Shown here: one piece after another, positions 22,427 through 42,602 of the stretch
Layout: every line of letters starts with the position of its first letter
How positions within the stretch are numbered: the first letter of the stretch is position 1
Source of the DNA: a virus
Lineage: Duplodnaviria; Caudoviricetes
Direction: 5' to 3' (one strand)
DNA length: 64,000 nucleotides
Virus record (IMG/VR): IMGVR_UViG_3300005937_000009
Span: 1-64,000 of that record
Notes under the pieces: generated by a model
The model's input: only the letters and a program-made list of their open reading frames with translations
What the model was told of the DNA's origin: nothing
Database searches by the model: none
Position numbers and translations under genes: made by a program

Positions 22427-22427
22427 A

Positions 22428-23965: not shown

Positions 23966-23969
23966 TCGA

Positions 23970-26228
23970 TTAAGGCGCGGTATATTTGATGAGGTCGGTT
24001 TCTACCTGGCTCAATACGGCGTTGGTGGTATTGGTCAGATTTTGACCGGTGGCCTTGAAGATCGCGGTTGAACTGGCGGTAAAACCGATACTGACCGTAG
24101 CCGTTTTAGTCGCAATCGCGGTGCCACTTGCATCGATCGTGCCGATGATGGTAGCCACGGCGCGCACGTTGGATGCATCGATTCTCGTGATGGTTCCCCA
24201 GACATGGACGCTTTGAGCCCCGCTGTTCGTCCATGAATGCTGCACAATCACGGTTCCATTGAAGAGAATCTGAAGGTTGCGGCCGACGTTATCGGCAGAA
24301 GTCAGAAAGACGCAATTGAAGTGCATTACGTCGCCATCGGTGCCGAACACATTAGCCGCGATCGTTTTCGAGTGTAGGTCCGTAACCGAATTACTTGAAG
24401 TCGATGAGGTCGCGGTATTGACATAGTACGCGCCACCCAACGTGATCGTATCGGTCGAGGGCGTTGAACCATTGCCTGCCCTCGTGGTGACTCTGCCGCC
24501 GTTATTTAAGGTGTAATAAATAGAACTGTTCTTACCCGCCGTAATGATATCGTTCGCGCCCGTGGTATTGACGCTCAATATCGGGTTGCCCGAGCCGCTT
24601 AAGGTGGCCCCTCCAAACGTCGGCGTAGAAGTCGTGGCAATGTCCTGCGGCGTTGATAACGTGGGATTGCCCGAGACCCCATCACCATTTGAGACGTTAA
24701 CCTGATTGCTCGTACCGGTGATCGTGCGGGTTGTCCATGTGCTCGTTCCCGTTCGCGTGGCTATTCCGTTGGTGCTCAATCCCTCGACCGCGTTCAAATC
24801 GTCGGCCAGGGCCAGGGTGGGATTACCTGAGACGCCGTTGCCATTCGTCACGGTGATACCCGCCGCTGGCCCTGTCAAAGTGCGCGTCGTCCATGTGTCG
24901 GTGGCTGTTCTTGTGGCAAGTCCGTTTGTCGAGAGCCCTTCGACGCCGGCCAGGTCGTTTGCAAGCGCGAGCGTGATATCCCCCGCGATGCCTGCGGGAT
25001 TCGTGATTGTGATGCCTGCTGCCGGTTGCGTCACTTGGCGCTGTACCCATGTATCGGTCGCGGACCTTACGGCAATCCCGGTGCTCGATAGTCCTTCCAG
25101 CGCGGCCAGGTCGTTTGCAAGTGCAAAGGTGGGATCGCCGGCAATGCCCGCCGGATTGGTGATGGTCAGGCCGGCTGCGGGCTGCTGCAACGTCCGGGCG
25201 GACCCGGTGCCGGTCCCCGTGCGCGCCCATAGGCCATTACTCGTATTCGATGCCAATGCATCAAGATCGCTATCAGCCGTGACATTGATCTTTGATCCGG
25301 TGTCGGCTGCGGTATAGCTCGATCCGACAAAGTTTAAGATGTTGCGCTGCGGGAGGTCTGATCCTTCCTCCTGAATCCGGGTGATGGAGCCGTTAACCGT
25401 GAGGGTTCCGCTTGAGATTGAGAACTCGGAAGCCAGGGTTAAACAATTCGTCGGCCTGCCCGATGAAGCGAAATAGACGAGCTGATTGACGGTGCAGGAG
25501 GGCAGAAAGTTATTGATCTCCTGCTTCGAATAGGCGTCTAACCCCGTCACGACCGGGGGCGGATTGACCGTGTTAAAGCTGCAAATGTCCGCCCATGACG
25601 TAGGATTGCTGGTCGAACTCAGCATAAAAGACGTGACGCAACCGGGAAAGTTCTGGATAAATCCCCCGGATTGTGTATAGAGCGCGGCAGACCATCGGGA
25701 AGTGGTAGGGCTGCCGTCGGTCGTGGCCGGAAGATCGAAGGCCGGAAGATAGAGCACATTGGTTGAGCCGTTGTTGACCACGGAGGCCGCAACACGGGTG
25801 TACCAATTGCCGCTCCCCAGAGTGCCGGGTTGAATGGGAACGCTCGACCCGAGAGGCGTGAAGGCTGGCCCCGTCAAATAGGTTCTCAAATGTACGAACT
25901 TATAGAGGGTTCCGCTATAGGTCGTAGTCGCATCAAGAAACGCGCTGGTCAGGGTCGCGGCGGATCTCGAGGGACAAGATGCGACCGTGTACGCCGTGCC
26001 GTTGATCAGGATGCGCCAGCCGGCCAACCCTACAACACTCTGCGGAAAGCATGAACTACATGTTAACGATGTGCTGGAAAGGGTCGCGCTGATCCCTGAA
26101 ATCGTCAGATCGCTACCGATGTCAGTACGGTTGAAGCCGTTGACTGTCGTTGCCCCGATTGTAATGTCGGTGGCCAGCGCTGGCCCGGTGAGCACGAAGA
26201 AAAGAAGGATAAAGAGCAGATATCGCAT
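23970..26228 (-). CDS. Long tail fibre with a signal peptide and four 52-aa repeats
   Basis: MRYLLFILLFFVLTGPALA|T; IQEEGSDLPQRNILNFVG fibre joint motif; DL..LEGLST.G.ATRT repeats. Confidence 0.75.
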   Translation of the reverse strand: MRYLLFILLFFVLTGPALATDITIGATTVNGFNRTDIGSDLTISGISATLSSTSLTCSSCFPQSVVGLAGWRILINGTAYTVASCPSRSAATLTSAFLDATTTYSGTLYKFVHLRTYLTGPAFTPLGSSVPIQPGTLGSGNWYTRVAASVVNNGSTNVLYLPAFDLPATTDGSPTTSRWSAALYTQSGGFIQNFPGCVTSFMLSSTSNPTSWADICSFNTVNPPPVVTGLDAYSKQEINNFLPSCTVNQLVYFASSGRPTNCLTLASEFSISSGTLTVNGSITRIQEEGSDLPQRNILNFVGSSYTAADTGSKINVTADSDLDALASNTSNGLWARTGTGTGSARTLQQPAAGLTITNPAGIAGDPTFALANDLAALEGLSSTGIAVRSATDTWVQRQVTQPAAGITITNPAGIAGDITLALANDLAGVEGLSTNGLATRTATDTWTTRTLTGPAAGITVTNGNGVSGNPTLALADDLNAVEGLSTNGIATRTGTSTWTTRTITGTSNQVNVSNGDGVSGNPTLSTPQDIATTSTPTFGGATLSGSGNPILSVNTTGANDIITAGKNSSIYYTLNNGGRVTTRAGNGSTPSTDTITLGGAYYVNTATSSTSSNSVTDLHSKTIAANVFGTDGDVMHFNCVFLTSADNVGRNLQILFNGTVIVQHSWTNSGAQSVHVWGTITRIDASNVRAVATIIGTIDASGTAIATKTATVSIGFTASSTAIFKATGQNLTNTTNAVLSQVETDLIKYTAP
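24645..25268 (-). repeat. Four tandem 52-aa (156-bp) repeats in the tail fibre gene
   Basis: DLDALASNTSNGLWART.../DLAALEGLSSTGIAVRS.../DLAGVEGLSTNGLATRT.../DLNAVEGLSTNGIATRT... Confidence 0.9.
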
Positions 26229-27378: not shown

Positions 27379-28011
27379 TTAGCTTGCGGCTTCGAAGTTG
27401 AAGACCTCTTGGGCCAGTCTTTTTGCGGCTATTTCACAGTATTTTTCTTCGATCTCTATTCCGATGGATTTGATGCCGAGATCTTTAGCGGCGCGGAGAG
27501 TCGTACCGCTGCCCATGAATGGGTCCAAAATAACACCCGCTGGCGCACCTTTGAGGATATAGCGAAACAATGCCAGAGGTTTAGGGCATGGGTGTGTATT
27601 CCCGCGACTATGATTTACTACATCTGGCAATGCGATGGCATCATTAGCAAAAGACCACCCATCACCGTATAGACTGATCGGTTCCCAGATGGAAAAGCCT
27701 TTTACATTACTGCGCCGTGTACTTCCTGGCTTATACCAGCATAGAGACCATTTAGGCTTCGGCAGATGCCACAGATTGCGGAATGACATGCAAATAGCCG
27801 CAGGAGATTCGTTTATCAGGCTTAAACATACTGGGAGGATGATTGATTGCCATTGTTCTGCCGTGTCTTCATATGATTGGTATTCAAACCCGACGCCGTA
27901 AGGTGGATCTGTCACGACCACGCCAACCGGGCCCAACTGCGGCAATATCTCTCTGCAATCACCGTGGTAGATCGTCGCGTATTCATCCTGATAATACGGC
28001 GTGAGGCTCAT
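27379..28011 (-). CDS. DNA amino-methyltransferase (N6-A/N4-C, beta class)
   Basis: YHGDCREIL, VTDPPYG (motif IV), HPCPKPL, ILDPFMGSGTT (motif I). Confidence 0.92.
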   Translation of the reverse strand: MSLTPYYQDEYATIYHGDCREILPQLGPVGVVVTDPPYGVGFEYQSYEDTAEQWQSIILPVCLSLINESPAAICMSFRNLWHLPKPKWSLCWYKPGSTRRSNVKGFSIWEPISLYGDGWSFANDAIALPDVVNHSRGNTHPCPKPLALFRYILKGAPAGVILDPFMGSGTTLRAAKDLGIKSIGIEIEEKYCEIAAKRLAQEVFNFEAAS

Positions 28012-29015: not shown

Positions 29016-29823
29016 TTCTCTCTTTCTGCCATTGGTTTATTTGCAGGATCGAAGCTCCAGAGCGGCTGTGTCCCGCTGTGAAATGGAATTTCCCATTGCT
29101 CAATACCGATGGATCGAAGGTGGTAAACCGGTGTCTGTGGGTCTGAAACCAATCGTCGATCATCTCGCGCATCGGTTTACGCCATTGCTCCTCACGCCAG
29201 GCGGTAAACTCGTCTGTGCGTTTCTCGATCTGCTCATCCGAGGGCGCAAGCTGATCATTCGCGGCGTGGTCCCGGTTCCAGATCATGCGGCGGATTCGCT
29301 GAAGATCCGTATCTGTCGGTGGCCGGTAGGCTCCAAGACAGGGTTCATAGTTGACGATCTCCTGCCCGTTACAACACAGTTCATCGTGGTACGCGATGCA
29401 GAAGACATGGGAGTAGAAACCATCATCGGGAAGCGGCCCTAGAATATCTTCGAGCGCAAAGCCGGTGGCCTCGCTGCGGTGATACCTGGCATTCTCCCAT
29501 GCATTGTTCTTCATGAGTTCAGCGCGGGAGTGGAGTTGCAGGAGATAGAAGCGGGGATTGCCGATATCGTGGATCTCCCCCGCTTCTTCATACCGCCAGA
29601 ATGGAAACTGTAGGCGCCTGCGGCCCATCAGCCACATGCCGGCGTGTTCCATATCCTGCCCCCATACGATCCTCAGTATTGAGAACCCTTCGACAGTCTT
29701 ACCGGCAATCTTGTCTATGCGCTCCTGCCAGGGTATCAGATCGACAGGAGAGGGAAGATTACCGGCTTTGACTATCTGTGATTCAATATCGAAGATCGGA
29801 TGGGATGCGCGGTGAGTGTTCAT
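28981..29823 (-). CDS. Hypothetical protein (head module)
   Basis: 280-aa ORF; TAATG coupling with the upstream gene. Confidence 0.7.
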   Translation of the reverse strand: MNTHRASHPIFDIESQIVKAGNLPSPVDLIPWQERIDKIAGKTVEGFSILRIVWGQDMEHAGMWLMGRRRLQFPFWRYEEAGEIHDIGNPRFYLLQLHSRAELMKNNAWENARYHRSEATGFALEDILGPLPDDGFYSHVFCIAYHDELCCNGQEIVNYEPCLGAYRPPTDTDLQRIRRMIWNRDHAANDQLAPSDEQIEKRTDEFTAWREEQWRKPMREMIDDWFQTHRHRFTTFDPSVLSNGKFHFTAGHSRSGASILQINQWQKERSANVSSDASAD

Positions 29824-30116
29824 TAAGTGACTACGTACAGAATGGCATCTGCCGTGACGGAGGTTGAGGCGTTGGATGCGCCGAGCGTAAAGACGACCTG
29901 CGTATCCGTGCCGTTGGTGCCGAGGGTCGTATCAGCGGCACCGCTGCATACTGCGGAGACCACAAAGCGGCCTCCCGCATCGGCTGCGGTGATCGTGATG
30001 GTATCTCCGACAGTTCCCCCGCCGAGACGATAGAATGTCATTAAGAAAGGTCCAGCAGTCGGATAAGGACTGCTTAAACCCTGTGCGGTTACTTTGGTTG
30101 CAGCTCTTGTCGCCAT
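29823..30116 (-). CDS. Putative capsid decoration protein (paralogue B)
   Basis: MATRA start; FYR..GGTVGDTITI, TQVVFTL motifs shared with its neighbour; directly downstream of the capsid gene. Confidence 0.6.
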   Translation of the reverse strand: MATRAATKVTAQGLSSPYPTAGPFLMTFYRLGGGTVGDTITITAADAGGRFVVSAVCSGAADTTLGTNGTDTQVVFTLGASNASTSVTADAILYVVT

Positions 30117-30125
30117 CGGTCCCCC

Positions 30126-30431
30126 TTACAGTCTGCGGCAGAGAAGCTGCACGTCATAAACGACCGATGTAGAAGCACCCGAGGCATCGTAGGTCAGTAC
30201 TACTTGAGTATTGGCCGATGTGCTTAAGCTGCTCTCTGCCGGCGCGGTCCCCATCACGGCGCGGATATCGGCGGATTGCGCATCAGAGGCGGGAATGGTG
30301 ACGGTATCGCCAGCGGTCCCGGCCTGAACGCGGTAAAACGCGATGATAAGGCCATCTTCCGTAAAGGTGATGGGCAAAGTACCGCCGGAAACGATTGCGG
30401 TAGAAACGTTTGTATATGCTCTTGTAGCCAT
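30126..30431 (-). CDS. Putative capsid decoration protein (paralogue A)
   Basis: MATRA start; FYRVQAGTAGDTVTI, TQVVLTY; strong AGGAG SD. Confidence 0.6.
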   Translation of the reverse strand: MATRAYTNVSTAIVSGGTLPITFTEDGLIIAFYRVQAGTAGDTVTIPASDAQSADIRAVMGTAPAESSLSTSANTQVVLTYDASGASTSVVYDVQLLCRRL

Positions 30432-30447: not shown

Positions 30448-31710
30448 TTAATTTATATCCGCAACCTGGGTTGCTAAGCCTACCACGCTGCATCGCTTTA
30501 TAAGGGCGTGGCATCTTGGTTCCTCCGTTCCCCAATTTGCCCACATGCCAATGGCTCCCGTGTAGGCGTCGGCACCGTATCCGGTCGAGCCTGAGCGCAT
30601 GCGCAACTTGTTGCCGTCGGCATCGTAAGTATCGAGCGGCCTTTCCTCGTACTTCTTCAACTCGCTCTTGACGAGCAAATAAACGCGGTCTTCGTCGCAA
30701 TCCGGATCGACAGCGGCTACCGTGTCCCCATGCTGCCACTTGTCAAAAGACTGATCGAAGATCTTTGCGTCTCCATCCCATCTCTTGAAGTTCTGGCCCA
30801 ACTGCGTCAACGCCTGATCCTGCGCGAGCGACATGACAGCGATAAGAGTTTTTGCCTTGCCGATGCCGGCACGAGAGATCAAGAGCCGCTTGGTGTAGTT
30901 GAAATCGGCGGTTGTGATGGCCGCACCGTTGAGATCGCGCACCGGGCAGCGCAATTGCGGGTAGGTGTTCCGCGATTGGAGTTGAAACGTTCCGGTATCG
31001 TTGTTCACGATGTACGCCAAGCCTCGCGGCATCTTGTACAGTGAATTGGAGAGGACGAGGATATCGCCATCAGTCGCGCCCGAGACAGCGGCGGCAATGG
31101 TGATGGTTTTCGCGGCCTTGGCTGTTACCTGGACCGTGGCCCGGTAGGTCGCCAGCGTCGAGTCATACCAATCATAGCGCTCGGATACTTCCATATGCCG
31201 CGCTCCCTTGGTCGAACCAAAGGTAGAAAGCGGCGTATGATCGATCGCGTTGTAGAGCGTAACGGTGGTGGTCCCCGATTTGTATGTCGATCGGAGGCCG
31301 GAACCATCGTTATAGACCTGGCGATTACATTCTTTCTTAATCGCCATCATCTCAAATTCCATATATCCGGGCAGGCCATCGATCATCGATCCCTTACCCG
31401 CGAAGTTGTTGAGCGCTCGCCCGGTGATTTCGAAAGCTTTCGAAATGTTCATCGGATAGACGAACATATCGTCATTCGTGAATGCACCGGGTTGATTGAA
31501 CGCGCCACCCTCCGCAATACCACTGACGCCTACGGGCGGGCGGAGATTGGACGGCACGCGAAAGCCTTTACCCTGCACATACTCAGTGCTCGCGGCCTTC
31601 TCGAATAGGTTGTATGTCGCGGTCTCTTGCTCAAACTGAGGTCTGAGCGAGTTAGCGACAAGTTGATCCAGTGCGGGGGCGATTGCCGCAATATTTACTG
31701 CAACACCCAT
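30448..31710 (-). CDS. Major capsid protein (HK97 fold)
   Basis: 420 aa after the scaffold gene; GVSGIAEGGAF, MPRGLAYIV, DRVYLL patterns; strong GGAGGT SD. Confidence 0.8.
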   Translation of the reverse strand: MGVAVNIAAIAPALDQLVANSLRPQFEQETATYNLFEKAASTEYVQGKGFRVPSNLRPPVGVSGIAEGGAFNQPGAFTNDDMFVYPMNISKAFEITGRALNNFAGKGSMIDGLPGYMEFEMMAIKKECNRQVYNDGSGLRSTYKSGTTTVTLYNAIDHTPLSTFGSTKGARHMEVSERYDWYDSTLATYRATVQVTAKAAKTITIAAAVSGATDGDILVLSNSLYKMPRGLAYIVNNDTGTFQLQSRNTYPQLRCPVRDLNGAAITTADFNYTKRLLISRAGIGKAKTLIAVMSLAQDQALTQLGQNFKRWDGDAKIFDQSFDKWQHGDTVAAVDPDCDEDRVYLLVKSELKKYEERPLDTYDADGNKLRMRSGSTGYGADAYTGAIGMWANWGTEEPRCHALIKRCSVVGLATQVADIN

Positions 31711-31729: not shown

Positions 31730-33058
31730 CTAGCCCTTCGGAAGCTGAGACATGACTTGCGCCCACCATTCAGGGTTGGTCTTGCCGTCTTTAGTGACGG
31801 GTGGCGGTCCCCCTGCTCCGTTGTTGGTCGCGCTCATGCCTGCTATCTCGCGGCGTTGTGGGGCGGCTTGTCGTTGGGTTTCTCGGTAGGCCCGCGCATC
31901 CCGGAATACTGAATCAAGCATCTGGATTCGATCTTTCATCAACTGGCCGAGGCGGGTGTTGAACTGCGCGGCCATGCCACGCGCCCGCTGTTCGTCCTGG
32001 CCCGCTGCCATGCCTTCATTGTGAAGACGGCGCAAGGGCGCATTACGAAGCATTGAGAGCGTATCGTGATACATCTGAGACCATTTCTGGTCCGCAAGAA
32101 GATCAGCGAAAGCGCCTTCCACGACCATTTTGTAGATTGATTGATTCTGTGCCGAGTTATCCGGGCCGAACGGTTGCCATTTATTTAATTGCGCGAAATG
32201 GGCCTGTTCATATTGATCAGAGAGTGTCGTAATGCTCGCCTCGCCCTGCTGCTTCGCCTGGTCCACCTGATAGCGCCATGCCGCTTCGGCCTGTTGCCGC
32301 TGCCCTGCTGTCAATTGGTTCAATTGCTCAATCCGTTTCAAAAATCCGGCTTGAGCCTCCGGGCTGACCAGCTCTTGAAACTCCGCCACGTCTTCGCGGC
32401 TGAGATTTCGAGCGATGTTCTGAAGGTTCTGGGGTAGGCTTGCGATCGTCTCGTCATCAATATAACCAGTCGGCGCACTGGCGGCCTGTTCGGGGAGCAA
32501 TCCGCGCTCCTGCAATTGCTGGACGAGATAGGCGGGCTCATACTCTAGGAGAGCGTCTGCTATCTGCCAGTATGCCGGGGTCGCGTTCTCCGCGATTGCC
32601 TGTAAAAAGGGGAGCGTGCCTTGTCCGGGGTCAGCAATGAGATTGTTGACCAGTTCCAGACCCGGTGCCGCCGCCTCGATGCCGCCGAATTGATCAAACT
32701 GCCCTAACTGCTGCCGCAATTGGGCGTTTTCGCTCTTCAGCGTCTTCAGTTGTGCCCGTGCGCCTCGTAGATCCTCGACCAGCTTGGGCGCTCTTGCCTG
32801 ATCCAGTTGTTGATCCTGCAAGTATTGGCCGATTTGCTCGTCGGTCAGATCCTCGATTCCCGGTGTTTCCTGCGCCTGGTCGTCAAAGGACCACCCAGCG
32901 GAGAAAAGATCCTCTCCCGCAGGTTGTGCGCTCTGTGCGCCCTGGTCCGTAGTCCCGGTGGAAACAGCCGCATCACTGCCACCCGCGCCAGTGGCCCCAA
33001 CGGTTGAGGGTGCCGATGATGAGTCGGCAGATGTCGCGCTAGAAATTTCGTCAGGCAT
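31730..33058 (-). CDS. Capsid scaffolding protein
   Basis: Acidic disordered N-terminus and coiled coils, immediately upstream of the capsid gene. Confidence 0.7.
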   Translation of the reverse strand: MPDEISSATSADSSSAPSTVGATGAGGSDAAVSTGTTDQGAQSAQPAGEDLFSAGWSFDDQAQETPGIEDLTDEQIGQYLQDQQLDQARAPKLVEDLRGARAQLKTLKSENAQLRQQLGQFDQFGGIEAAAPGLELVNNLIADPGQGTLPFLQAIAENATPAYWQIADALLEYEPAYLVQQLQERGLLPEQAASAPTGYIDDETIASLPQNLQNIARNLSREDVAEFQELVSPEAQAGFLKRIEQLNQLTAGQRQQAEAAWRYQVDQAKQQGEASITTLSDQYEQAHFAQLNKWQPFGPDNSAQNQSIYKMVVEGAFADLLADQKWSQMYHDTLSMLRNAPLRRLHNEGMAAGQDEQRARGMAAQFNTRLGQLMKDRIQMLDSVFRDARAYRETQRQAAPQRREIAGMSATNNGAGGPPPVTKDGKTNPEWWAQVMSQLPKG

Positions 33059-33065
33059 ATAAATG

Positions 33066-33106
33066 CAAAAAGCCCGCTGAAAAACCGTATGGTCATTCAG
33101 CGGGCT
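33066..33106 (-). terminator. Terminator-like hairpin just upstream of the scaffold start codon
   Basis: AGCCCGCTGAA/TTCAGCGGGCT stem plus a U-tract ending about 8 nt before the ATG at 33058. Confidence 0.6.
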
Positions 33107-33175
33107 CTAGTGTTCGTGGTCGCGTACTCTCCGAGCGGGAGGGGACGCGGAATTGACTAGATACTGCCTATAAAG

Positions 33176-33301
33176 TTATGGATTAGTCGTGGTGCTGTCT
33201 TCTAGTTTGAGTTCGGCTAACAGCTTGCGCAGTCCTGAGACTATCAGGCTGAAGCCTTGGATCAAGAGTTGTATAAGGGTAATAGTCTGCTGTCGGGTCA
33301 T
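33176..33301 (-). CDS. Small amphipathic peptide (41 aa; not in the ORF track)
   Basis: MTRQQTITLIQLLIQGFSLIVSGLRKLLAELKLEDSTTTNP; ATGA overlap with the upstream ORF. Confidence 0.45.
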   Translation of the reverse strand: MTRQQTITLIQLLIQGFSLIVSGLRKLLAELKLEDSTTTNP

Positions 33302-33528
33302 GGCTCCGGGATCTTCCAGCCCTTTGAGCGTACTTCTTCATTGCGCTGCCGCTTCGCCGCAATGCGCTTGTAGAGTTCGGCTTCGCCTTCGAATTGTTCT
33401 TTCAAGCTATCTTGCAGCTCGAGGAGTATGGCGCGCATCTGATCGGTGGTGACGTGCTTGATCCGCTTCGGTCTCGGTCGAAACCGGGCAATGATCGCAG
33501 AAATGAGATGCTTAAGCCTTTGTAGCAT
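33298..33528 (-). CDS. Hypothetical protein
   Basis: 76-aa ORF overlapping the end of fcl. Confidence 0.5.
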   Translation of the reverse strand: MLQRLKHLISAIIARFRPRPKRIKHVTTDQMRAILLELQDSLKEQFEGEAELYKRIAAKRQRNEEVRSKGWKIPEP

Positions 33529-34465
33529 GCGCCGTTCTCTGGGCCTTGTACCAATCTACTGTTTCGCGCAGACCCGCGCCTAACCATCTCTTCGCGTTAA
33601 ATCCGAATTTGGCGTTGGCCTTTGAGACTTCAAGCCATCGGTTCATCTGCCCATCCGGCCTTGAATGATCCCATTGAATCTTGCCTCTGAATCCGCATTG
33701 AGACGCAATCAAGCATGCGATCTCTTCGATGCTGATGGCAACGCCCGTGCCGACGTTCACGGGATCGCTCGAATCATAGCGCTCGGCCGCAAGTAAGATG
33801 GCATCGACCGCATCTTCGACGTGGAGGAAGTCACGGGTAGGCCGACCAGTGCCCCAGAGGGTAATGGATTGCGCCCCGGTCTCGACCGCTTCCACACACT
33901 TTCGAATAATGGCCGGGATAACGTGCGAGGTCTCCGGGTCGAAGTTGTCACGCGGGCCGTAGAGATTGGCCAACAGGAGATTGATGGAATTGAATCCGTA
34001 CTGCGCTCGGTATGCCTGAGACTGGATGATGAGCGTTTTCTTGGCCATCCCGTAGGCTGCATTCGTCGGTTCAGGGTATCCGTTCCATAGATCTTCCTCA
34101 CGGAAGGGAACCGGCGTATTTTCGGGATAGCTGCAAATAGTACCGATGGAGATAAATTTGCGCACAGCCTCAATGCGCGCTCTCATCAGCAAGTACAAGC
34201 CCATCATGACATTAAAATCCCACATATCGGCGGGGCTTCCCTCGTTGAGTCCGATACCTCCACAATAGGCTGCACAGTGAATAATGCAATCTGGGTCTAT
34301 ATCATCAAATAAATCTTTGACTTCTGCTCTTTCACATAAATCGTAATCATCACTGGACGGCGCATAAACTGTCGCTCCTCGCGCTTGTAACTTCTCGACC
34401 ACATAAGAGCCGAGAAAGCCGGACCCGCCGGTCACTAACACACGCTGAAAAGGAAAGTCAGTCAT
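33512..34465 (-). CDS. fcl: GDP-L-fucose synthase (epimerase/reductase)
   Basis: VLVTGGSGFLGS, IHCAAYCGGIG, SIGTICSYP, YGMAK, NLYGPRDNFD, SHVIPAII, WGTG.PTRDFLHVED. Confidence 0.95.
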   Translation of the reverse strand: MTDFPFQRVLVTGGSGFLGSYVVEKLQARGATVYAPSSDDYDLCERAEVKDLFDDIDPDCIIHCAAYCGGIGLNEGSPADMWDFNVMMGLYLLMRARIEAVRKFISIGTICSYPENTPVPFREEDLWNGYPEPTNAAYGMAKKTLIIQSQAYRAQYGFNSINLLLANLYGPRDNFDPETSHVIPAIIRKCVEAVETGAQSITLWGTGRPTRDFLHVEDAVDAILLAAERYDSSDPVNVGTGVAISIEEIACLIASQCGFRGKIQWDHSRPDGQMNRWLEVSKANAKFGFNAKRWLGAGLRETVDWYKAQRTAHATKA

Positions 34466-34467
34466 AC

Positions 34468-35520
34468 TTACCGACCCGTCGCCTTGATATATCCCGCCGT
34501 ATATTCCGGGCCGACAGGGACGAAACTTTCGCCCCTACTACACCGGGCTTGCGCGAAGTCGCAATCTACCATGTTCTGCACAATCTGCTTAAATGTATGC
34601 TTCGGCTCCCATCCCAGCGCTTTCCGGGCCTTGCTCGCGTCTCCGCACAGCGAATGCAGTTCAGTTGGCCTGTACAATCGCGGGTCGATCTCAACGTAAT
34701 GCTGCCAGTCCATACCGAGATAGCCGAACGCTTCGTCAAGGATCTCACACACTGAATGACTTTCACCGGTCGCTATTACATAGTCGTCGGGCGTATCCTG
34801 CTGCATCATCAACCAGATCGCCTCTACGTAATCTGGAGCGTAACCGATATCGCGTTTTGCGTCGAGATTGCCGAGTTTCAGCGTCTTGTCCAATCTCAAC
34901 TTGATCCGCGCTGCCGCCTTCGTGATCTTGCGCGTTATGAAAGTCTCTTTCTGTCGCGCCGATGTGTGGTTGAAGAGAATACCGTTGACTACGAACAACT
35001 GCGTTGCCGCGTAGTAGCCGTGTCGGGCTTTCACTGCACATTGATAGGCTTCGTGCTTGCTCTCACCATAAGGAGAGCAGGGCTTAAACGGCGTCATTTC
35101 GTTTTGAATGTCATCCTCTGCATTTCCAAACATCTCGCTACTGCTCGCCTGATATATCTTTGGATAACCGGGAATTGTGGGCCAGTTCAATGCCGCTCTT
35201 AACAAGACTTGCACCATGCCGGCGGTATTCACATCCCTCGTATATTTCGGCATCTGAAAGCTGATCTGAACGTGAGACTGGGCGGCCAGATTGTATATCT
35301 CGTGTGGCTGGCATTCCTGCAACACCATTCGGATTGCATCTTCATCCAGCAGATCGCAATACCGCATCTGCAAATGTCTGTAGATATGGTCAATCCGCCC
35401 GGTATTGATCGAAGAACATGGTCTTTGCGTACCCCATACTTCATAACCCTTGCTCAACAGGAGTTCAGCAAGATAGCTCCCATCCATTCCGGTAATGCCG
35501 GTGATCAGCGCTCTTTTCAC
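34468..35520 (-). CDS. gmd: GDP-mannose 4,6-dehydratase
   Basis: ALITGITGMDGSYLAELLL, YNLAAQSHV, YQASSSEMFG, SPYGESK, NGILFNH, LGNLDAKRD.G.A.DYVEA.W.M.Q. Confidence 0.97.
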   Translation of the reverse strand: MKRALITGITGMDGSYLAELLLSKGYEVWGTQRPCSSINTGRIDHIYRHLQMRYCDLLDEDAIRMVLQECQPHEIYNLAAQSHVQISFQMPKYTRDVNTAGMVQVLLRAALNWPTIPGYPKIYQASSSEMFGNAEDDIQNEMTPFKPCSPYGESKHEAYQCAVKARHGYYAATQLFVVNGILFNHTSARQKETFITRKITKAAARIKLRLDKTLKLGNLDAKRDIGYAPDYVEAIWLMMQQDTPDDYVIATGESHSVCEILDEAFGYLGMDWQHYVEIDPRLYRPTELHSLCGDASKARKALGWEPKHTFKQIVQNMVDCDFAQARCSRGESFVPVGPEYTAGYIKATGR

Positions 35521-35771
35521 TGCTTTACCCGCTCGAAATGTACAGTAAATTCGTCGCCAACCTTCGTATCAGCAAGCAGGAATTGAGCCGGGATAGTGAA
35601 GAGCCCGTCCAACGAGAACCCCAAAGACGGCGCATCATTTACTATCCGGACCCCAAACGAATGATGAATGATCACCTCATATTGCCCGGACTTCAACGCC
35701 TCCACGGTCTGCCCCATGAGTGTTTCTTCTCGCCAGGTCTCGTTTATTACGTGGATTTTCAATGGTGCCAC
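35517..35771 (-). CDS. Hypothetical protein
   Basis: 84-aa ORF coupled to gmd. Confidence 0.55.
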   Translation of the reverse strand: MAPLKIHVINETWREETLMGQTVEALKSGQYEVIIHHSFGVRIVNDAPSLGFSLDGLFTIPAQFLLADTKVGDEFTVHFERVKQ

Positions 35772-35962
35772 CTCTTCGCATTGGCCGCGAAAACGGCCCG
35801 CTTCTTCAATGTCGGGTTGCTCGAATGAAGGGCTTTGCTCAACTTCTTCGCGGGAATCGGTTCGCCTTGCGCGACCCCGAGAGATTTATGCAACAGCCCC
35901 TTATGACTCGGCTTGATGTGGATACCCGATTTCCGGCTTTGCCGTTGCCTCTGTGCGTTCAT
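35759..35962 (-). CDS. Small basic protein (KGLLHKSLGV...IPAKKL family)
   Basis: Lys/Arg-rich; resembles small basic head-module proteins of environmental phages (from memory). Confidence 0.65.
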   Translation of the reverse strand: MNAQRQRQSRKSGIHIKPSHKGLLHKSLGVAQGEPIPAKKLSKALHSSNPTLKKRAVFAANAKRWHH

Positions 35963-36171
35963 CAGCCCTCCAGATGCGCGCCGCCTTTGGCCTTCCGGGA
36001 TTGCCGCGCACGCTGCGCCTTGCGGCCCGTGGGTGCGCGCTCCGGTAGGGATTTAGTCGGATAGCCTGAGACGTACTCTTCGGCCTTCTCCGGGCTCAAT
36101 CCCGGTGCCTGGATGCTTCCCGATGCGACCCCGCGCATAAAACGAGCCTGTTTCTTGGATACTGGCGGCAT
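35962..36171 (-). CDS. Small basic protein (MPxxSKKQARFM family)
   Basis: The MPPVSKKQARFM N-terminus is a recurrent motif in podovirus head modules. Confidence 0.65.
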   Translation of the reverse strand: MPPVSKKQARFMRGVASGSIQAPGLSPEKAEEYVSGYPTKSLPERAPTGRKAQRARQSRKAKGGAHLEG

Positions 36172-36179
36172 GATTCACC

Positions 36180-38171
36180 TCAACTTGAAATCAATTGAAT
36201 CTCTGCGGGCTGCTCCGACCAGTGCGGAATCTTGCGTTTCTCCAGCCATTCGAAGATTGACATGCAGCGCTTTGTGACCTTGCCATTCTCGATATGCGGG
36301 TAGAGGACGTGGGAATCTTCATGGCCGATGCAGACGTTGACCGCGAGCGCGGCTTTGAATCCCTGATCACAGAAGTTGCGCCAGAAGTAGATATCAGCGT
36401 CGGTGTGCTCTACCCAATCCCCATCTTTATCCGGGACATTGAGAAACCATGGCTTGCGCAGCTTCTCAAAAACCCGTCTGCGAAAGACGGTCAATCCGAA
36501 ATGCCCGGTAGTGATCGGGACTAACCCCTGTGTGAGATCCACCGGCCCAGCAGTGCCGCATAGAACCTCTTCGAATGTCCCGCGCCGAGCCTGGACCGGT
36601 ACAATGCAGTCATACTGCGGATTCTGGTACAACAGCTTGATCATCTCGTAGACATCATCAGCGGTGCCTATCGTGTCGTAATCGGCGGTGAGGATAACGT
36701 CTGTCTCGTCGCCCTTCTGGTCTTTATACTGAAGCGCACTCTTGATCGATCGCGTCAAACCCTGCTCCCACCACGCGCCGCCGCTGGTGAGCAATGGAGC
36801 CCGCAGCATGACGGCAATCGCGCCGAGCACATCATTGGCATACAGGGAACCGTACCGGGGGCGACTCATCACCATGGCTACAACAACTTTCTTTTGTTCG
36901 GCAATAAGTCCGTTGTCGTGCCATTGCCCCGAGATGAATTGCCGCCCCGGTTCCTTGTTCTCTCGAATCTCCTCACCTTTGACCGGCCAGTTTTCGAGCT
37001 TCTTGGCTTCGTCTTTCCGTACCGCGATCAGGTTGCAATAGGTGCGGCAGATTATCTCATATCCGCGAGCCTCAAGGACGAAGCGCAGCGCGAGCCGGCC
37101 CGCCTGTCCATCCCCGTTAGGCTCAGGGATGAACATCGGATCGGCGTCGGGTGCGTATTCCGCCACGATCACACGCGGCTTGTACTTCACCATGGCGTTG
37201 AGTATGTGATACTCCTGCCCGTCAATATCCAATGAAAGGAGATCAATATCTATCGGTGCATCAACCAAGCTGAGCGCGGCGTCTACGCTGTAGTCACGGG
37301 TCAGGGCGTGATTGATCAGAATCACACCTGACCCCTGATCAGGGTAGCGCTGTTTGAGGCTGTGAAATAGCTTCTCGTCGGGCTCCATCAACAGGGCACC
37401 GCATCCGTTCTCTATCAATCGTCGCGTATTGGAGAAAAAGAGCCCGTCTGCCGCGCCCGCTTCGAAGCAAAACGCATTCTTGAACTTGATGGCGTTGAAG
37501 ATGGCCTCAATGATCCCATCCTCTCCGAACTGGCTATACTGATTAAGCGGTGCGATCGATTCAACAAACCCCTGATACTTGGGCTCCAGCGGCATATCGT
37601 CCGGAATATCGTAGCTGTAGGGCACGGTCTCGATCTCGATCGGCTTGGGAGCGGATTGCGGTTGTGGCTTCCTGGCCATCAGGTTGAGACTGACCGGGAG
37701 AGAGGCACAATCGTTCTTTAGTTCGCTCTGCCATGGTTCGATCTCAATCAATCCGGCATCGCTCATCAGCAATCGCAAGTTGTATTCATCAAAGATCGAC
37801 TTATGATAGTCGCTCGCGTGCTGCTGGCCACCCATCAGGAAAGAAGCGATAGGCGCATTTGGCGGGCATTCCCGTTGCCCAAGATATGCCTCACAGATCC
37901 ACCGGAAGTTGGGAACGGCCAGCTTGAGGATCCCCCCCGGCTTGAGGACGCGGACCCACTCTTTCAGGATCGCGGGAATCTCGGCAAGTGAAAAGTGCTC
38001 TAACGTGTGGCTGCACCTGATCACCTCGGCGCTGTTGTCGGCGTAGCGGGTCAGCGGATAGATCGAATCCCCGCGTTGCCCGTCGAGGTTATCGTAGCCG
38101 TCAAGCCAGGTGTCGGGATGGCCCGCGCCGAGGTTCAATTTCAAAGATGCTGTGATCGTGCCGTCTTTCAT
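36180..38171 (-). CDS. Three-domain fusion: class I SAM methyltransferase + FkbM-like methyltransferase + GT-A glycosyltransferase-like domain
   Basis: LNLGAG...SHTLEHF...WVRVLKPGG; YSQFGEDGI...EAGAADG..SNT...SLDIDGQEY; TADYD...GLTVFRRRVFEKL.KPWF...DIYF...CIGH. Confidence 0.8.
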   Translation of the reverse strand: MKDGTITASLKLNLGAGHPDTWLDGYDNLDGQRGDSIYPLTRYADNSAEVIRCSHTLEHFSLAEIPAILKEWVRVLKPGGILKLAVPNFRWICEAYLGQRECPPNAPIASFLMGGQQHASDYHKSIFDEYNLRLLMSDAGLIEIEPWQSELKNDCASLPVSLNLMARKPQPQSAPKPIEIETVPYSYDIPDDMPLEPKYQGFVESIAPLNQYSQFGEDGIIEAIFNAIKFKNAFCFEAGAADGLFFSNTRRLIENGCGALLMEPDEKLFHSLKQRYPDQGSGVILINHALTRDYSVDAALSLVDAPIDIDLLSLDIDGQEYHILNAMVKYKPRVIVAEYAPDADPMFIPEPNGDGQAGRLALRFVLEARGYEIICRTYCNLIAVRKDEAKKLENWPVKGEEIRENKEPGRQFISGQWHDNGLIAEQKKVVVAMVMSRPRYGSLYANDVLGAIAVMLRAPLLTSGGAWWEQGLTRSIKSALQYKDQKGDETDVILTADYDTIGTADDVYEMIKLLYQNPQYDCIVPVQARRGTFEEVLCGTAGPVDLTQGLVPITTGHFGLTVFRRRVFEKLRKPWFLNVPDKDGDWVEHTDADIYFWRNFCDQGFKAALAVNVCIGHEDSHVLYPHIENGKVTKRCMSIFEWLEKRKIPHWSEQPAEIQLISS

Positions 38172-38407
38172 TTATCTATTTTCTTAAACTCTACCTGCGC
38201 TACAATGCTGTCTAGTTCGCCATAAGCGCCGTTCTTTATGCGGATCTCAATCCATTCAAGTTTGCAATTATGCTCACGCTCAAACTTCTCTTTATTCCGG
38301 TGGTAGAGCATCAGAACGTGATCAAATACGGCCTCTTTGCTCCTGGCGTGTTCAATAAGGCGTTTACTGATCTCGAACGGCCATGTAATGCGCTGCGGGT
38401 CGCTCAT
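38168..38407 (-). CDS. Hypothetical protein
   Basis: 79 aa; ATGA overlaps at both ends. Confidence 0.6.
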   Translation of the reverse strand: MSDPQRITWPFEISKRLIEHARSKEAVFDHVLMLYHRNKEKFEREHNCKLEWIEIRIKNGAYGELDSIVAQVEFKKIDK

Positions 38408-41274
38408 CCCATCATCCCCGGTGCCGGCGGTTGTCCCATGGGCTTGGGTCGCGGCTGTGCGCTGCCTCCGGACCCTCCCGCCTGTTTGCCGTCGGGCGAA
38501 CTATTCTTTTTATCCGTGGTCTTTGGCTTCTCTTTCCCGCCTTCCTGATCCGGTGGCGGTCCCTGCGGAGGCTGACCCATCATCCCGAGCATCCCGGTAA
38601 ACTGCGCTTCGGCCATTAGCCCCTGGAGATGGAAATAGAGAAGAGCCTTGACCCCTTCCCGCTGCTCCTGCGGCGCCTTCTTGCCCTCGTCCGTGGTGAG
38701 CCATTCGCGCAGATATTGAATGCTGGACATATGGCCCAACTCCTCAATCATCGGCTGAGGCTGAAAGATCCCCATCAGGAATTGACCGGCCTCGGCCATC
38801 GGATCGACCGGCATGGGGACCATTTGACCGGTCATCGGGTCCGCTCCCATCTGTACCGCGGGCATATTCGCCTGGGCAACTTGCAGCATCGGAAGGGCTT
38901 GCGCCATCTGGTCTATCCGCTCCCGGCACATCTCGGCCGCCGCCGTGTAGTCTTCCCCGGCCAGGTCCACATCGAAGATCTCGGCCAACTGTTCAACCTG
39001 ATCGGGAAACTGCTGCATGGCCTGCTGGAGACCGGGGAGGCCACCCACACGCTGTAGAAAGCCGTCCCAGCGCTCGCGCCGTTCAAGATTGGTCTGCGGT
39101 AAATAGGAATCGCCTACGACCTCCGCGAAGAGATCGACATTGATATCCGCCGATTTCAACCATACGCCATCCTGTTCCCCCCGCTTCCCCGAAAGCGAGA
39201 CGTAGACTTCATCAATGCAATGAGTCTTAAACAGCTTAAGGATGATCTCGGCGGATACTCGATCGACCTCAGCTTTTAGGGCAAGCTGCGGGCCGAACAG
39301 CGATTGAGCGTTGGCGCTTGTGATCTGCGCACCGGTCGCCGTGCTGTTGTTGACTCCGGGCAATCCGCCGCTGAAGTCAGTAACCCGGCTGGCCTTCTGC
39401 ATGTAAAAGTCTAGTTGCTGGGCGTATCCAAAATGCTGCTGCGTCGGCGGCTGCGGCTGCAACTGGTAGACCGCATCTGACAGCCTTAACCGGTCGTCAA
39501 GGTTCGCCAACTCAACGGGGATATTCGAGAGCGACCCGAGATACGCACTGACGCCGTTGGGCAATAGCCGCGCATCGTAGAGCGTGGCCGGCATGGCTGC
39601 CGTGCGAAGCTGTGTGTAGATGATCGACATGATGAGGTTATATTGCCGGTTGCCCTCAATCATATCTTCGATCCCGCACCCGAGCGATGAGATTGCGCGA
39701 GGCCGCAGAACGGAACCTACCCAATAGTCTTTGTGGTGCTCGTCCCTGAGTTCGATTACCGCATCGATCCCCTCGACAAAGCACATATAGAGCCCGGTAG
39801 GGAAGAGATCAATAAGCTTTGTGCCCGCTGAGATCGTATCGCCTGATAGCGTGGTCAGGTTCTCATTCAGGATATTCCGCGAATAGAGGCAGGGATCTAG
39901 CCAGATCTGCACGAAGTCCGTTGACTGCTCATCGTTGTTATCCTTAAGCCAGGTTCCCGAGCTGCCCGCCGTGAAGGTCGCTTTCTTCAGCGAGTCTTCC
40001 ATGCGCATCGCCCACGAGTCGCCCTTTGCGGTCTTGATGTCCAGAAACGGAAAGGTGCTCTGTAGGATCGCAGTCCTGACACGGCGCCTACGGATCAGAT
40101 AGGGGGATTCGTGCGGGTCTTTCTGCAAGTCGTGCTTGAGTTCGAACGCGGGTACAGTCTCGCAGACCATATCCCCGGTGTCTATCTCGTCGTATCCGGT
40201 GACTGCTTCGACGGGGAAGGATTCAGCGGGTTGGATCTCGAGGTTTGGGCTTCCGCATTCTGGACATGTGGCGTGTCCCTCCATGGAGGGAGCGGCCCCC
40301 AATAGATCGGATGGGGCGGTCCCCATACTTGAGCCTTCCATGCCTCCACTTCCCGTAGAAAGCGCCCCCGGTTGAACCATCGTTGCTGTTTGCCCATGCT
40401 CGATCGCCTCGCCCTGTTGATACGCTTCTGGATTCTGTCTCTGAATGACCTGTTCCGCATCCTCTTCGCTCGGCATCTCCTGCCCGGTGAAGGGCTGCGC
40501 TAATTGAGCGCCCGCCGCTGGTCCTGCATCCGGCGGATAAGCGGACCCATTGCCCGCGCCTTGAACGTCTCCCGGTACACTATCAGGCTGAAGTTGCGCC
40601 GCTGCTCCGCTGGCCATAGCTCCGGCCATATCCCCGCTACCAGATGCCAATGGCCCGGACCATCCACAGTCAGCACAGAATCCGGTGGTTTCGCCCATCT
40701 GCATCTGCTGCTGTTCGATTCGTGGCCGTCTGGCCTTTCCTTTGACTTCATCGCTGTACCGGATATACCGGGCGTATTTCCCGCCCAGCGCAAGCATGGC
40801 CTCAAGCTGTTTGAATTGGTTGGTGTAAAGTTTGCGCTTGTAGTGGTCGTGGGCCTTTTGCGCGGCCTTTGCTGAGCCCTGCGCCTGGTCCGCATCGCTT
40901 GACGGTCGCCATGCGATGTCGGTATTTGATCCTGACCACTTCGCCCGCGAGTTCTCCGCATAGAACCCCACGAGGTTATAGCCATATACCGGCGTGTCGG
41001 TGCGCTCCGGGAGGGGTGCCGGTCGCCATCCTCCCCCGTATTTCGCTCTCCGTAGAAGGTGCCGACCTTCGATGAAAGAAAAACTCATGGCCCAGATCAG
41101 GGATTGATTATCCCAGACCATGATGTCTTCGCCCTCGAGCCGCCGCTTCTCGCTCAAGAACCAATCGGCGCGGATCTGGATTGAGCGATCGGCCTGCGCG
41201 CCCTGCATCGCTCCCATGAGCGGACCTTGCGGCGCGAGATTCGGAGTTGTAGCCGTGGCGAGGGAAAGAGACAT
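38404..41274 (-). CDS. Portal protein with a Zn-ribbon insertion
   Basis: 956 aa downstream of terL; podovirus-portal-like patterns (YLIRRRRV, PGVNNSTATGAQI), Pro/Gln tail. Confidence 0.8.
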   Translation of the reverse strand: MSLSLATATTPNLAPQGPLMGAMQGAQADRSIQIRADWFLSEKRRLEGEDIMVWDNQSLIWAMSFSFIEGRHLLRRAKYGGGWRPAPLPERTDTPVYGYNLVGFYAENSRAKWSGSNTDIAWRPSSDADQAQGSAKAAQKAHDHYKRKLYTNQFKQLEAMLALGGKYARYIRYSDEVKGKARRPRIEQQQMQMGETTGFCADCGWSGPLASGSGDMAGAMASGAAAQLQPDSVPGDVQGAGNGSAYPPDAGPAAGAQLAQPFTGQEMPSEEDAEQVIQRQNPEAYQQGEAIEHGQTATMVQPGALSTGSGGMEGSSMGTAPSDLLGAAPSMEGHATCPECGSPNLEIQPAESFPVEAVTGYDEIDTGDMVCETVPAFELKHDLQKDPHESPYLIRRRRVRTAILQSTFPFLDIKTAKGDSWAMRMEDSLKKATFTAGSSGTWLKDNNDEQSTDFVQIWLDPCLYSRNILNENLTTLSGDTISAGTKLIDLFPTGLYMCFVEGIDAVIELRDEHHKDYWVGSVLRPRAISSLGCGIEDMIEGNRQYNLIMSIIYTQLRTAAMPATLYDARLLPNGVSAYLGSLSNIPVELANLDDRLRLSDAVYQLQPQPPTQQHFGYAQQLDFYMQKASRVTDFSGGLPGVNNSTATGAQITSANAQSLFGPQLALKAEVDRVSAEIILKLFKTHCIDEVYVSLSGKRGEQDGVWLKSADINVDLFAEVVGDSYLPQTNLERRERWDGFLQRVGGLPGLQQAMQQFPDQVEQLAEIFDVDLAGEDYTAAAEMCRERIDQMAQALPMLQVAQANMPAVQMGADPMTGQMVPMPVDPMAEAGQFLMGIFQPQPMIEELGHMSSIQYLREWLTTDEGKKAPQEQREGVKALLYFHLQGLMAEAQFTGMLGMMGQPPQGPPPDQEGGKEKPKTTDKKNSSPDGKQAGGSGGSAQPRPKPMGQPPAPGMMG

Positions 41275-42066: not shown

Positions 42067-42161
42067 ATGATCACCTCACTTTGGAAACGGTGTTAATTGA
42101 AGTAGCCACCACCGGGTTAGCTAGCATGTGTTTTACCCTTCAAGGAACCGGATAGGCCATA

Positions 42162-42235
<74 letters not shown>

Positions 42236-42240
42236 ACAAG

Positions 42241-42513: not shown

Positions 42514-42529
42514 TATTGATCCTCTTGAG

Positions 42530-42602
42530 TGGCACGGGCAGGAATCGAACCTGCGTCAAACACTTTATGAGAGTGTTGAGATAACCACTTCTCTACCGTG
42601 CC
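42530..42602 (-). tRNA. tRNA with CAT anticodon (elongator Met or Ile2)
   Basis: GGCACGG-TA-GAGA.TCTC-A-ACACT-CTCATAA-AGTGT-TTGAC-GCAGG-TTCGATT-CCTGC-CCGTGCC-A. Confidence 0.9.

Follow-up and report, generated by a model that had tools for sequence, protein, structure and literature searches.

A nucleotide-sugar cassette and a fused transferase in the head region

The DNA analysed here, referred to as the window, is a stretch of 64,000 nucleotides comprising the first 64 kb of the IMG/VR virus record IMGVR_UViG_3300005937_000009 (72,189 bp, with direct terminal repeats and an estimated completeness of 100%), which belongs to a soil phage of 72 kb. Its head region carries a gene for a 663-aa protein in which two methyltransferase (MTase) domains are fused to a glycosyltransferase (GT) domain (MT-MT-GT fusion, 36180-38171), followed by gmd, encoding a GDP-mannose 4,6-dehydratase of 350 aa (34468-35520), and fcl, encoding a GDP-L-fucose synthase (GDP-4-keto-6-deoxymannose 3,5-epimerase/4-reductase) of 317 aa (33512-34465). 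All genes of the window discussed below lie on the minus strand, and gene order is given 5' to 3'. An earlier note on this DNA had reported these three genes, and their positions and strand were confirmed, as were the full length of gmd and fcl and the retention of their catalytic residues.

The order of features in the region is TerL, two tRNA-Met genes, two small open reading frames (ORFs), portal, p79, the fusion gene, p69, p67, p84, gmd, fcl, p76, a 41-codon ORF, a hairpin, p442, the major capsid protein (MCP) gene and the paired genes p101/p97. Start and stop codons overlap as ATGA or GTGA at portal/p79, p79/fusion, p84/gmd and p76/next ORF and also overlap at p69/p67, and gmd and fcl are separated by a gap of 2 nt; because of these overlaps and the short gap, the run from portal to fcl forms one densely coupled unit. 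The earlier note had placed the cassette between the portal and scaffold genes and described it as coupled to structural genes. The overlaps and the 2-nt gap agree with this, but three small ORFs (p69, p67 and p84) separate gmd-fcl from the fusion gene, and a terminator-like hairpin precedes p442. This hairpin (33067-33106) consists of 15 bp in two stacked helices followed by UUUU and ends 8 nt before the ATG of p442. The fold of 33055-33180 (-45.5 kcal/mol, z -5.36) is the first strong terminator-like structure after the portal-fcl run, and the hairpin layout is identical in the relative L004. Another hairpin returned by the terminator scan (41646-41610) was dropped as a terminator, as it lies inside the part of a 135-aa ORF that codes for a transmembrane helix.

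Gmd and Fcl are predicted to produce GDP-L-fucose

Gmd was identified by PF16363, TIGR01472 and its motifs. It matched PF16363 over the entire model (positions 1-332 of 332, E 3.5e-111, 372 bits against a cut-off of 27), and upon alignment with Arabidopsis MUR1 (1n7g, E 5e-99) the GxxGxxG motif was present as TGITGMDG, S127-S-E129 corresponded to SSE, and Y151 and K155 to YAASK. For Fcl, identified by NF047922 and by PDB matches, the top family was NF047922 (E 3.4e-78, 263 bits, positions 3-305 of 308), with the runner-up family at 85 bits, and GDP-L-fucose synthases filled the top 18 places among the PDB sequence matches (E 3e-60 to 3e-38), ahead of another class at 3e-25. Residues T109 (Ser in the reference), C111, Y138, K142 and H181 of Fcl align with GSSCIYP, YAIAK and SHV of 8du0; the triad of the short-chain dehydrogenases/reductases (SDR) and the Cys/His acid/base pair for 3,5-epimerisation are retained. 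On the basis of these profile matches and of the catalytic residues kept in both enzymes, we are highly confident that their joint product would be GDP-L-fucose, and the enzymology assumed in the earlier note is borne out by homology. As an NTP-transferase (ManC-like) gene gave no matches in the 72-kb genome, the GDP-mannose must be supplied by the host, as in Paramecium bursaria chlorella virus 1 (PBCV-1).

The two genes differ in composition from their surroundings, with a GC content of 0.52 as compared with about 0.56. Their correlations of relative synonymous codon usage are atypical (0.49 for gmd and 0.54 for fcl), while the fusion gene reaches 0.91 and the structural genes range from 0.63 to 0.93. 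The lower GC content and atypical codon usage, together with the presence of other cargo in the equivalent slot of relatives, fit a later acquisition of gmd-fcl as cargo, the fusion enzyme being the old, phage-specific resident of the head module.

Domain structure of the fusion enzyme

The fusion protein was analysed with Pfam, NCBIfam, AlphaFold2 (AF2), Foldseek and VIA. It comprises a class-I S-adenosylmethionine (SAM)-dependent MTase domain (aa ~10-170, nt 37662-38144; PF08241), an FkbM-type MTase domain (aa ~195-395, nt 36987-37589; PF05050 in relatives) and a GT-A glycosyltransferase domain (aa ~425-653, nt 36213-36899), the last recognized by its fold and its DxD motif. The class-I domain scored 32.3 bits with PF08241 (cut-off 21.2) and carries motif I as LNLGAGH, in which G15 and G17 are near-invariant. 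The match of the fusion itself to the FkbM model TIGR01444 is weak (24.3 bits, under the cut-off of 37.7); among 66 aligned relatives, Methyltransf_23 (PF13489) was found in 42, PF05050 in 40 and the GT2 model PF13632 in two. In the AF2 model of the whole protein (mean pLDDT 86.5), the chain folds into three globular domains, between which residues 173-188 and 400-424 form disordered linkers.

When modelled alone, the GT domain gave a GT-A fold at pLDDT 94 and a Foldseek probability of 1.0. Its VIA Z scores were 17.3 with A197 of Sulfolobus turreted icosahedral virus (STIV; root-mean-square deviation 2.2 over 158 residues), 16.4 with mimivirus R699, 15.2 with the GT domain of human LH3 and 13.7 with SpsA. 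D497-Y-D499 (the DxD), D591, D593 and H617 are invariant in alignments of 66 and of 75 sequences. As regards curated GT2 membership, the fusion protein gave no Pfam GT match, and PF00535 matched nothing in the genome. The domain instead forms a sharply bounded family of its own, with 783 clusters (50% identity) at E <=1e-3, of which 686 at E <=1e-10, among 1.84 billion representatives. A profile search of the 72-kb genome for a second GT (GT2 or GT1) found none.

One explanation of such an enzyme beside the portal gene is DNA hypermodification, in which the GT would glycosylate a modified base at or just before packaging and the MTases would further modify either the sugar or the base. DNA-hypermodifying GTs of phages are diverse according to a preprint (bioRxiv 10.1101/2023.12.21.572611) as cited in PMC12619734, a DNA MTase is encoded within the structural module of this phage, and a portal-proximal site would suit action at packaging. 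On the other hand, the MTase domains belong with Methyltransf_11 and FkbM and not with DNA MTase families, the closest structural neighbours of the GT domain include several protein-glycosylating GT-A enzymes, and a hydroxymethylase or TET-like partner is adjacent neither here nor in ~130 related loci, in which the adjoining genes encode MCP, adaptors and the small protein c2 described below. GDP-6-deoxyhexoses are, to our knowledge, not established as donors for DNA glycosylation, which also counts against this explanation, and we regard it as highly improbable.

The MT-GT family is essentially phage-specific and resides in head modules

More than 586 homologues of the fusion were found in metagenome-derived proteins, and a relative is encoded on 205 IMG/VR stretches. 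Identity is 52-54% for the closest protein relatives (P0003-P0005) and 35-57% for the family members in 80 IMG/VR loci. A tblastn search of 50,697 GenBank phage records yielded no match at E <=1e-8 and four unrelated weak matches at 0.01. Among 185,579 prokaryotic species, each represented by one genome, there were four multi-domain matches, two on short contigs of metagenome-assembled genomes (MAGs) and two on phage contigs of the window type (L088 and L089), all four contigs resembling phage DNA, and the remaining 76 cellular matches were FkbM-only proteins of 29-42% identity. The fused MT-GT is thus essentially phage-specific.

Seven window-type relatives (L002, L003, L004, L017, L027, L088 and L089) share the order portal, MT-GT, a short variable segment, p442 and MCP, with portals 56-70% and MCPs 64-71% identical to those of the window; gmd or fcl is present in none of the seven. 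The variable segment of L089 holds, between the MT-GT and scaffold genes and on the opposite strand, a gene for a 1214-aa TIR-NB-ARC-TPR protein (L089:9757-13401, minus strand), a defence-like gene within a head operon; the contig is binned with a 'Heliobacteriaceae' MAG.

ORFs were called in the 80 loci and clustered, and the cluster representatives were annotated. About 50 loci proved to be of the HK97 type, with TerL (phrog_9), portal (phrog_12), protease (phrog_80/phrog_53), MCP (phrog_10), c2 (phrog_5707), MT-GT and a head-tail adaptor or connector, whereas in the window lineage the fusion gene is placed after the portal gene. The c2 product is a small Thr/Ala-rich protein (for example L053:7395-7844, and in 78 other loci) for which the ESM Atlas gave a weak lead only, to Bbp16 cement-protein clusters, and a PDB sequence profile search from the c2 alignment gave no matches. 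An IMG/VR search with c2 only retrieved 79 loci, and in all 62 of those with at least 1.2 kb of downstream sequence an MT-GT gene followed within 3.5 kb (62/62). This pairing is the strongest argument that the business of the enzyme is with the capsid. Domain architectures vary within the family (MT11-GT in 44, three domains in at least 22 and FkbM alone in seven), the domains being fused in various ways or encoded by neighbouring genes.

Sulfotransferase genes (PF00685) adjoin the MT-GT gene at L007:8141-8785 and L018:2846-4314 and in L032, L060, L067, L191, L230 and L233, L018 having two of them and an extra FkbM gene; these neighbours suggest glycans that are sulfated as well as methylated.

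The same distribution bears on a serious rival explanation, namely that GDP-fucose and the MT-MT-GT enzyme remodel the lipopolysaccharide (LPS), capsule or S-layer glycan of the infected cell, either to block superinfection or to avoid trapping of the progeny on debris, the site in the head operon just giving late and strong expression. Cyanomyovirus gmd-fcl pairs sit with fucosyltransferases and have been read as serving cell-wall or LPS modification (PMC9602691), the cellular proteins nearest to the FkbM domain are encoded at chromosomal loci, frequently together with gmd/fcl, the slot taken by gmd-fcl accepts cargo in general, and lipid-linked intermediates on the inner membrane face would be within reach of a soluble GT. 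Set against this are the near absence of the fused MT-GT from cellular genomes and isolate prophages and its being locked to MCP and c2 in 62/62 loci. Moreover, a flippase, a polymerase, a Gtr-type membrane partner and a second GT went undetected, the neighbours being structural only; the genome has direct terminal repeats, and a lysogeny gene was not seen in the region studied, the remaining genome not having been searched for one. We consider modification of the host surface unlikely, although it has to be taken seriously.

gmd recurs beside MT-GT genes and is under selection

In L084, the closest relative, with 83% identity in the fusion and 89% in the portal, the order is portal, p79, fusion, p69, p67, p84 and gmd, and the contig ends within gmd. 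Ratios of nonsynonymous to synonymous substitution (dN/dS) relative to L084 were 0.07 for gmd, 0.06 for the portal gene and 0.12 for the fusion gene. As L084 keeps the gene order and the ratios are low, the cassette is maintained by selection and predates the split between the two phages. The earlier note had named a recent, unexpressed insertion as a finding that would refute it; a dead, recent insertion is ruled out by the order conserved in L084 at 83% identity and by the gmd ratio.

The synteny survey of gmd, fcl and GT genes proposed at that time shows that gmd recurs beside MT-GT in several head modules unrelated to that of the window. L041/L182 have the order c2, gmd, fcl, MT-GT, FkbM, and L030 has TerL, gmd, portal, an fcl-like SDR gene, protease, MCP, c2, MT-GT, while nine further c2-seeded loci have c2, gmd, MT-GT (six loci) or c2, MT-GT, gmd (three loci). 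Counting L182, 10 of the 79 c2-seeded loci have gmd, whereas any gmd occurs in 222 of the 50,697 GenBank phage records. In the gmd tree the phage genes form four deep lineages, the nearest to that of the window being 51% identical, and the tree did not resolve one from several acquisitions. In cells, gmd (at least 40% identity) lies within 8 kb of the FkbM homologue in 7 of the 76 loci, sometimes adjacent to it. The view of the earlier note that a nucleotide-sugar supply within a head module is unusual must therefore be qualified, since gmd adjoins MT-GT in several phage lineages and gmd-fcl pairs are known in cyanophages.

These arrangements also speak to the explanation that the two parts are unlinked neighbours, gmd-fcl being an independent metabolic moron in a permissive slot and the MT-MT-GT enzyme using a host-made donor on a target of its own. 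Such independence would agree with the variable cargo in the equivalent slot of relatives, the lack of gmd from most MT-GT phages and the deviating codon usage of gmd and fcl. It accounts poorly for the fact that gmd directly adjoins MT-GT in about five types of arrangement, with gmd genes from four deep lineages; furthermore, no other GT that could consume the product is detectable in the genome, and the portal-to-fcl chain is translationally coupled. A merely coincidental neighbourhood therefore seems to us quite unlikely.

Flanking genes

Between the terminase gene TerL (44353-42611; phrog_979, E 9.5e-63) and the portal module are the two tRNA-Met (CAT) genes (42161-42236 and 42529-42602). 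The portal gene (38404-41274) is the first large gene of the packed run and encodes 956 aa. Its match to phrog_156 is weak (E 4.7e-4), and a PDB sequence profile search from the portal alignment gave no matches, but the ESM Atlas placed it with P22/SU10 portal clusters (0.96, TM-score 0.73), and the protein is 58-63% identical in the relatives L003, L004, L017 and L027. Between residues ~200 and 340, invariant C200, C203, C337 and C340 flank a Gly/Pro-rich low-complexity insert, which is zinc-ribbon-like and unusual among portals. Some of the ESM Atlas clusters among the structural neighbours of the portal are labelled Acidobacteriota, which hints at the host.

Several small ORFs surround the three enzyme genes. 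The ORF p79 (38168-38407; 55% identical in L084) overlaps both the portal stop and the fusion start as ATGA. The basic ORFs p69 (35962-36171; weak match to phrog_16759) and p67 (35759-35962, 67 aa) are 69% and 93% identical in L084, respectively, and p67, which lies between the fusion gene and gmd and has a dN/dS of 0.06, is better conserved than the enzymes encoded beside it. The stop codon of p84 (35517-35771) overlaps the GTG start of gmd, p76 (33298-33528) overlaps the fcl stop, and the 41-codon ORF (33176-33301) is ATGA-coupled to p76.

Downstream of the hairpin, p442 (31730-33058) has a Ser/Thr/Ala/Gly-rich N-terminus and is conserved beside MCP in relatives. The earlier note called it the scaffold gene, and its position and Q/E/A-rich composition point to such a role, but it has no family matches. 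MCP (30448-31710, 420 aa) matched phrog_14242 (E 3e-13) and is 64-71% identical in relatives. Directly after it come p101 and p97 (29823-30431), small Thr/Ser-rich paralogues of 41% mutual identity (E 4e-15) that both begin with MATRA, contain 25-26% Ser+Thr and are conserved in relatives; they may be acceptors of the glycan or decoration proteins. No PHROG or Pfam matches were obtained for p79, p84, p76, p67, p101, p97 or p442, and blastn of the region against GenBank phages returned one 72-nt gmd fragment and nothing else.

Further downstream, a 210-aa DNA methyltransferase (27379-28011; phrog_67, E 3.6e-47) is encoded in the middle of the structural block between uncharacterised virion genes. 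At 21986-26228 there are at least three fibre-like proteins (752, 342 and 177 aa) with hydrophobic, signal-peptide-like N-termini and a Ser+Thr content of 22-27%, the 752-aa protein containing four repeated stretches that match phrog_697. Such features would not be expected of virion components that are put together in the cytoplasm, and these proteins, which the earlier note took for exported fibres that may work with the sugar supply, are possible glycan acceptors. A 3108-aa ORF (6226-15552) is probably a giant ejection protein; its first ~200 residues correspond to a lytic transglycosylase/internal virion protein with an endolysin domain, the remainder being unannotated. An assignment as an N4-like virion RNA polymerase was not adopted, as the PHROGs recognize in it the N-terminal lytic transglycosylase/internal virion protein domain only.

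A proposed route to a methylated sugar on the virion

We propose that the cassette is a late head-operon module of a lytic-type phage by which host GDP-mannose would be converted to GDP-L-fucose and the sugar transferred, O-methylated and placed on a virion protein, a proposal to which we give an even chance of being correct. Homology gives good support to the predicted chemistry of Gmd and Fcl and to the presence of two SAM-MTase domains and one GT-A domain with a DxD motif, whereas the use of a GDP-6-deoxyhexose by the GT, the O-methylation of the transferred sugar and the virion-protein acceptor are deduced from context. In the first step Gmd and then Fcl would turn host GDP-mannose into GDP-L-fucose. 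The GT-A domain, as the sole GT detectable in the genome, would move the 6-deoxyhexose to its acceptor, and the two SAM-dependent MTase domains would O-methylate the sugar at up to two positions. The acceptor would most likely be a virion surface protein (MCP, p101/p97 or fibres), resulting in particles that carry (di-)O-methyl-fucose. With a single GT, the simplest product would be mono- or di-O-methyl-fucose attached to Ser/Thr, to a different side chain or to a glycan already made by the host, and candidate acceptors are MCP, p101/p97, the Ser/Thr-rich N-terminus of p442 and the Thr/Ser-rich fibres at 21986-26228. The insertion of gmd-fcl may free the phage from the donor-sugar supply of its host.

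Several observations weigh against this proposal. The terminator-like hairpin lies downstream of the cassette and ahead of the scaffold-like and capsid genes. The TIGR01472 score of Gmd (379 bits over positions 1-340 of 342) is slightly below the strict equivalog cut-off of 415, and the 263 bits of Fcl are below the equivalog cut-off of 500 for NF047922. Only two of 40 MT-GT family records bear gmd, and because gmd is scarce in the family the GT can run on a host-made donor, which is not necessarily GDP-fucose. The majority of the gmd-bearing relatives are without fcl, so that the sugar may differ by lineage and perhaps be another 6-deoxyhexose. The slot occupied by gmd-fcl is variable, containing small uncharacterised ORFs in L004 and L088 and the TIR-NB-ARC-TPR gene in L089, and position in a single genome is therefore weak evidence by itself. 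Among the minus-strand ORFs at 26-45 kb of the window no c2 homologue was found (hhalign probability <=1%), so the tightest link of the family to the capsid does not transfer directly to the window lineage; p101 and p97 have no detectable homology to c2 and are its analogues by position only. Finally, a C-terminal Gly-x-Ser tail was sought in MCP and the other structural proteins and was not seen.

The suggestion of the earlier note that a (methyl)fucose glycan is added to capsid or tail proteins, or to the host surface, thus finds support in part, in that the context favours a capsid-linked role, the MT-GT being almost confined to phage head modules and gmd recurring beside it. In a wider sense, we tentatively suggest that MT-(MT)-GT is the catalytic core of a widespread phage-specific system for capsid glycosylation, without sequence relationship to that of mycobacteriophages. 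The family would comprise ~690 clusters at 50% identity, pair obligately with a small capsid-associated protein in HK97-type phages and decorate particles with an O-methylated, in some lineages perhaps sulfated, 6-deoxyhexose derived from GDP-mannose; in the present phage every step from GDP-mannose to the methyl-fucosylated virion would be phage-encoded. This generalization is possible, but we hold it with less than even confidence.

The recurrent gmd(-fcl) neighbour turns an orphan GT family into a testable hypothesis, in which the donor is a GDP-6-deoxyhexose and the acceptor should show mass shifts of +146, +160 or +174 Da, corresponding to deoxyhexose and to mono- and di-O-methyl-deoxyhexose, respectively. 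The predicted minimal set of three genes could be reconstituted in Escherichia coli, and the candidate acceptors are few. If the proposal is true of the enzyme family, uncultured phages of soils and waters would commonly have sugar-coated capsids, with consequences for the stability and adsorption of phages, for their recognition by grazers or immune systems and for phage engineering. Among tailed phages, glycosylation of the particle is known only from some mycobacteriophages, in which it weakens recognition by antibodies.

Comparison with known systems

Adjacent gmd and fcl genes are also present in the cyanomyoviruses S-SCSM1, S-SRM01, S-SKS1 and P-SSM2 (PMC9602691), with Gmd 47-50% and Fcl 37-40% identical to those of the window, and the standard reading of these cyanophage pairs is remodelling of the host surface (PMC9602691). 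Unlike in the window, they belong to large islands for cell-wall modification that contain several fucosyltransferase genes and not to a head module, and an MT-MT-GT partner is lacking. A cellular counterpart is found in the glycopeptidolipid cluster of Mycobacterium avium, the mdhtA-merA pathway of which presumably makes O-methylated fucose caps. In this cluster, mdhtA-merA-(gsc)-gtfD (AF143772), mdhtA and merA are 50.6% and 40.6% identical to gmd and fcl, respectively, and are followed by a GT gene with O-methyltransferase-like genes nearby, but it serves a cellular lipid-glycan pathway with separate enzymes, and its GTs and MTases are unrelated to the fusion.

Among tailed phages, the closest systems are the O-MTase and GT cassettes of mycobacteriophages. 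In cluster O, one O-MTase gene followed by three GT genes modifies the capsid and the tail tube (Freeman et al. 2023, cited through PMC11600133 and PMC12619734). Both systems have soluble GT and O-MTase activities encoded by the phage; a virion-protein target and a glycan shield are features of the mycobacteriophage cassettes that are proposed here. The enzymes are encoded there by separate genes as opposed to a fusion, and those citing accounts report no nucleotide-sugar genes. The fusion had no tblastn match to mycobacteriophages among the 50,697 phage records even at E 0.01 and is not a homologous member of that system.

Functionally, the closest described system is that of PBCV-1, in which the GMD A118R, the GMER A295L, the three-domain A064R (GT-GT-MTase) and the MTase A061L build a dimethylated terminal 6-deoxyhexose on the capsid protein, and in which GMD alone can make GDP-D-rhamnose (PMC9614988). 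As is predicted for the window, virus-encoded Gmd and GMER make GDP-6-deoxyhexoses from host GDP-mannose, and a soluble three-domain transferase of ~640 aa joins glycosyl and O-methyl transfer. Two successive O-methylations of the terminal 6-deoxyhexose and MCP as the target are known from PBCV-1 and proposed for the present phage. PBCV-1 differs in being a eukaryotic giant virus, in the GT-GT-MT order of its transferase as compared with MT-MT-GT, and in having its genes dispersed and early instead of in a head operon; the first domain of A064R (A064R-D1) is absent among the listed fold matches of the fusion GT domain, and no sequence relationship was seen, no search aimed at one having been made. 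Viewed against these systems, the cassette, the observation of which is confirmed and the interpretation partly supported, would be a variant of virus-encoded virion glycosylation, to which the window adds a portal-proximal MT-GT variant without c2, a complete donor pathway and a recurrent gmd link pointing to a GDP-6-deoxyhexose donor.

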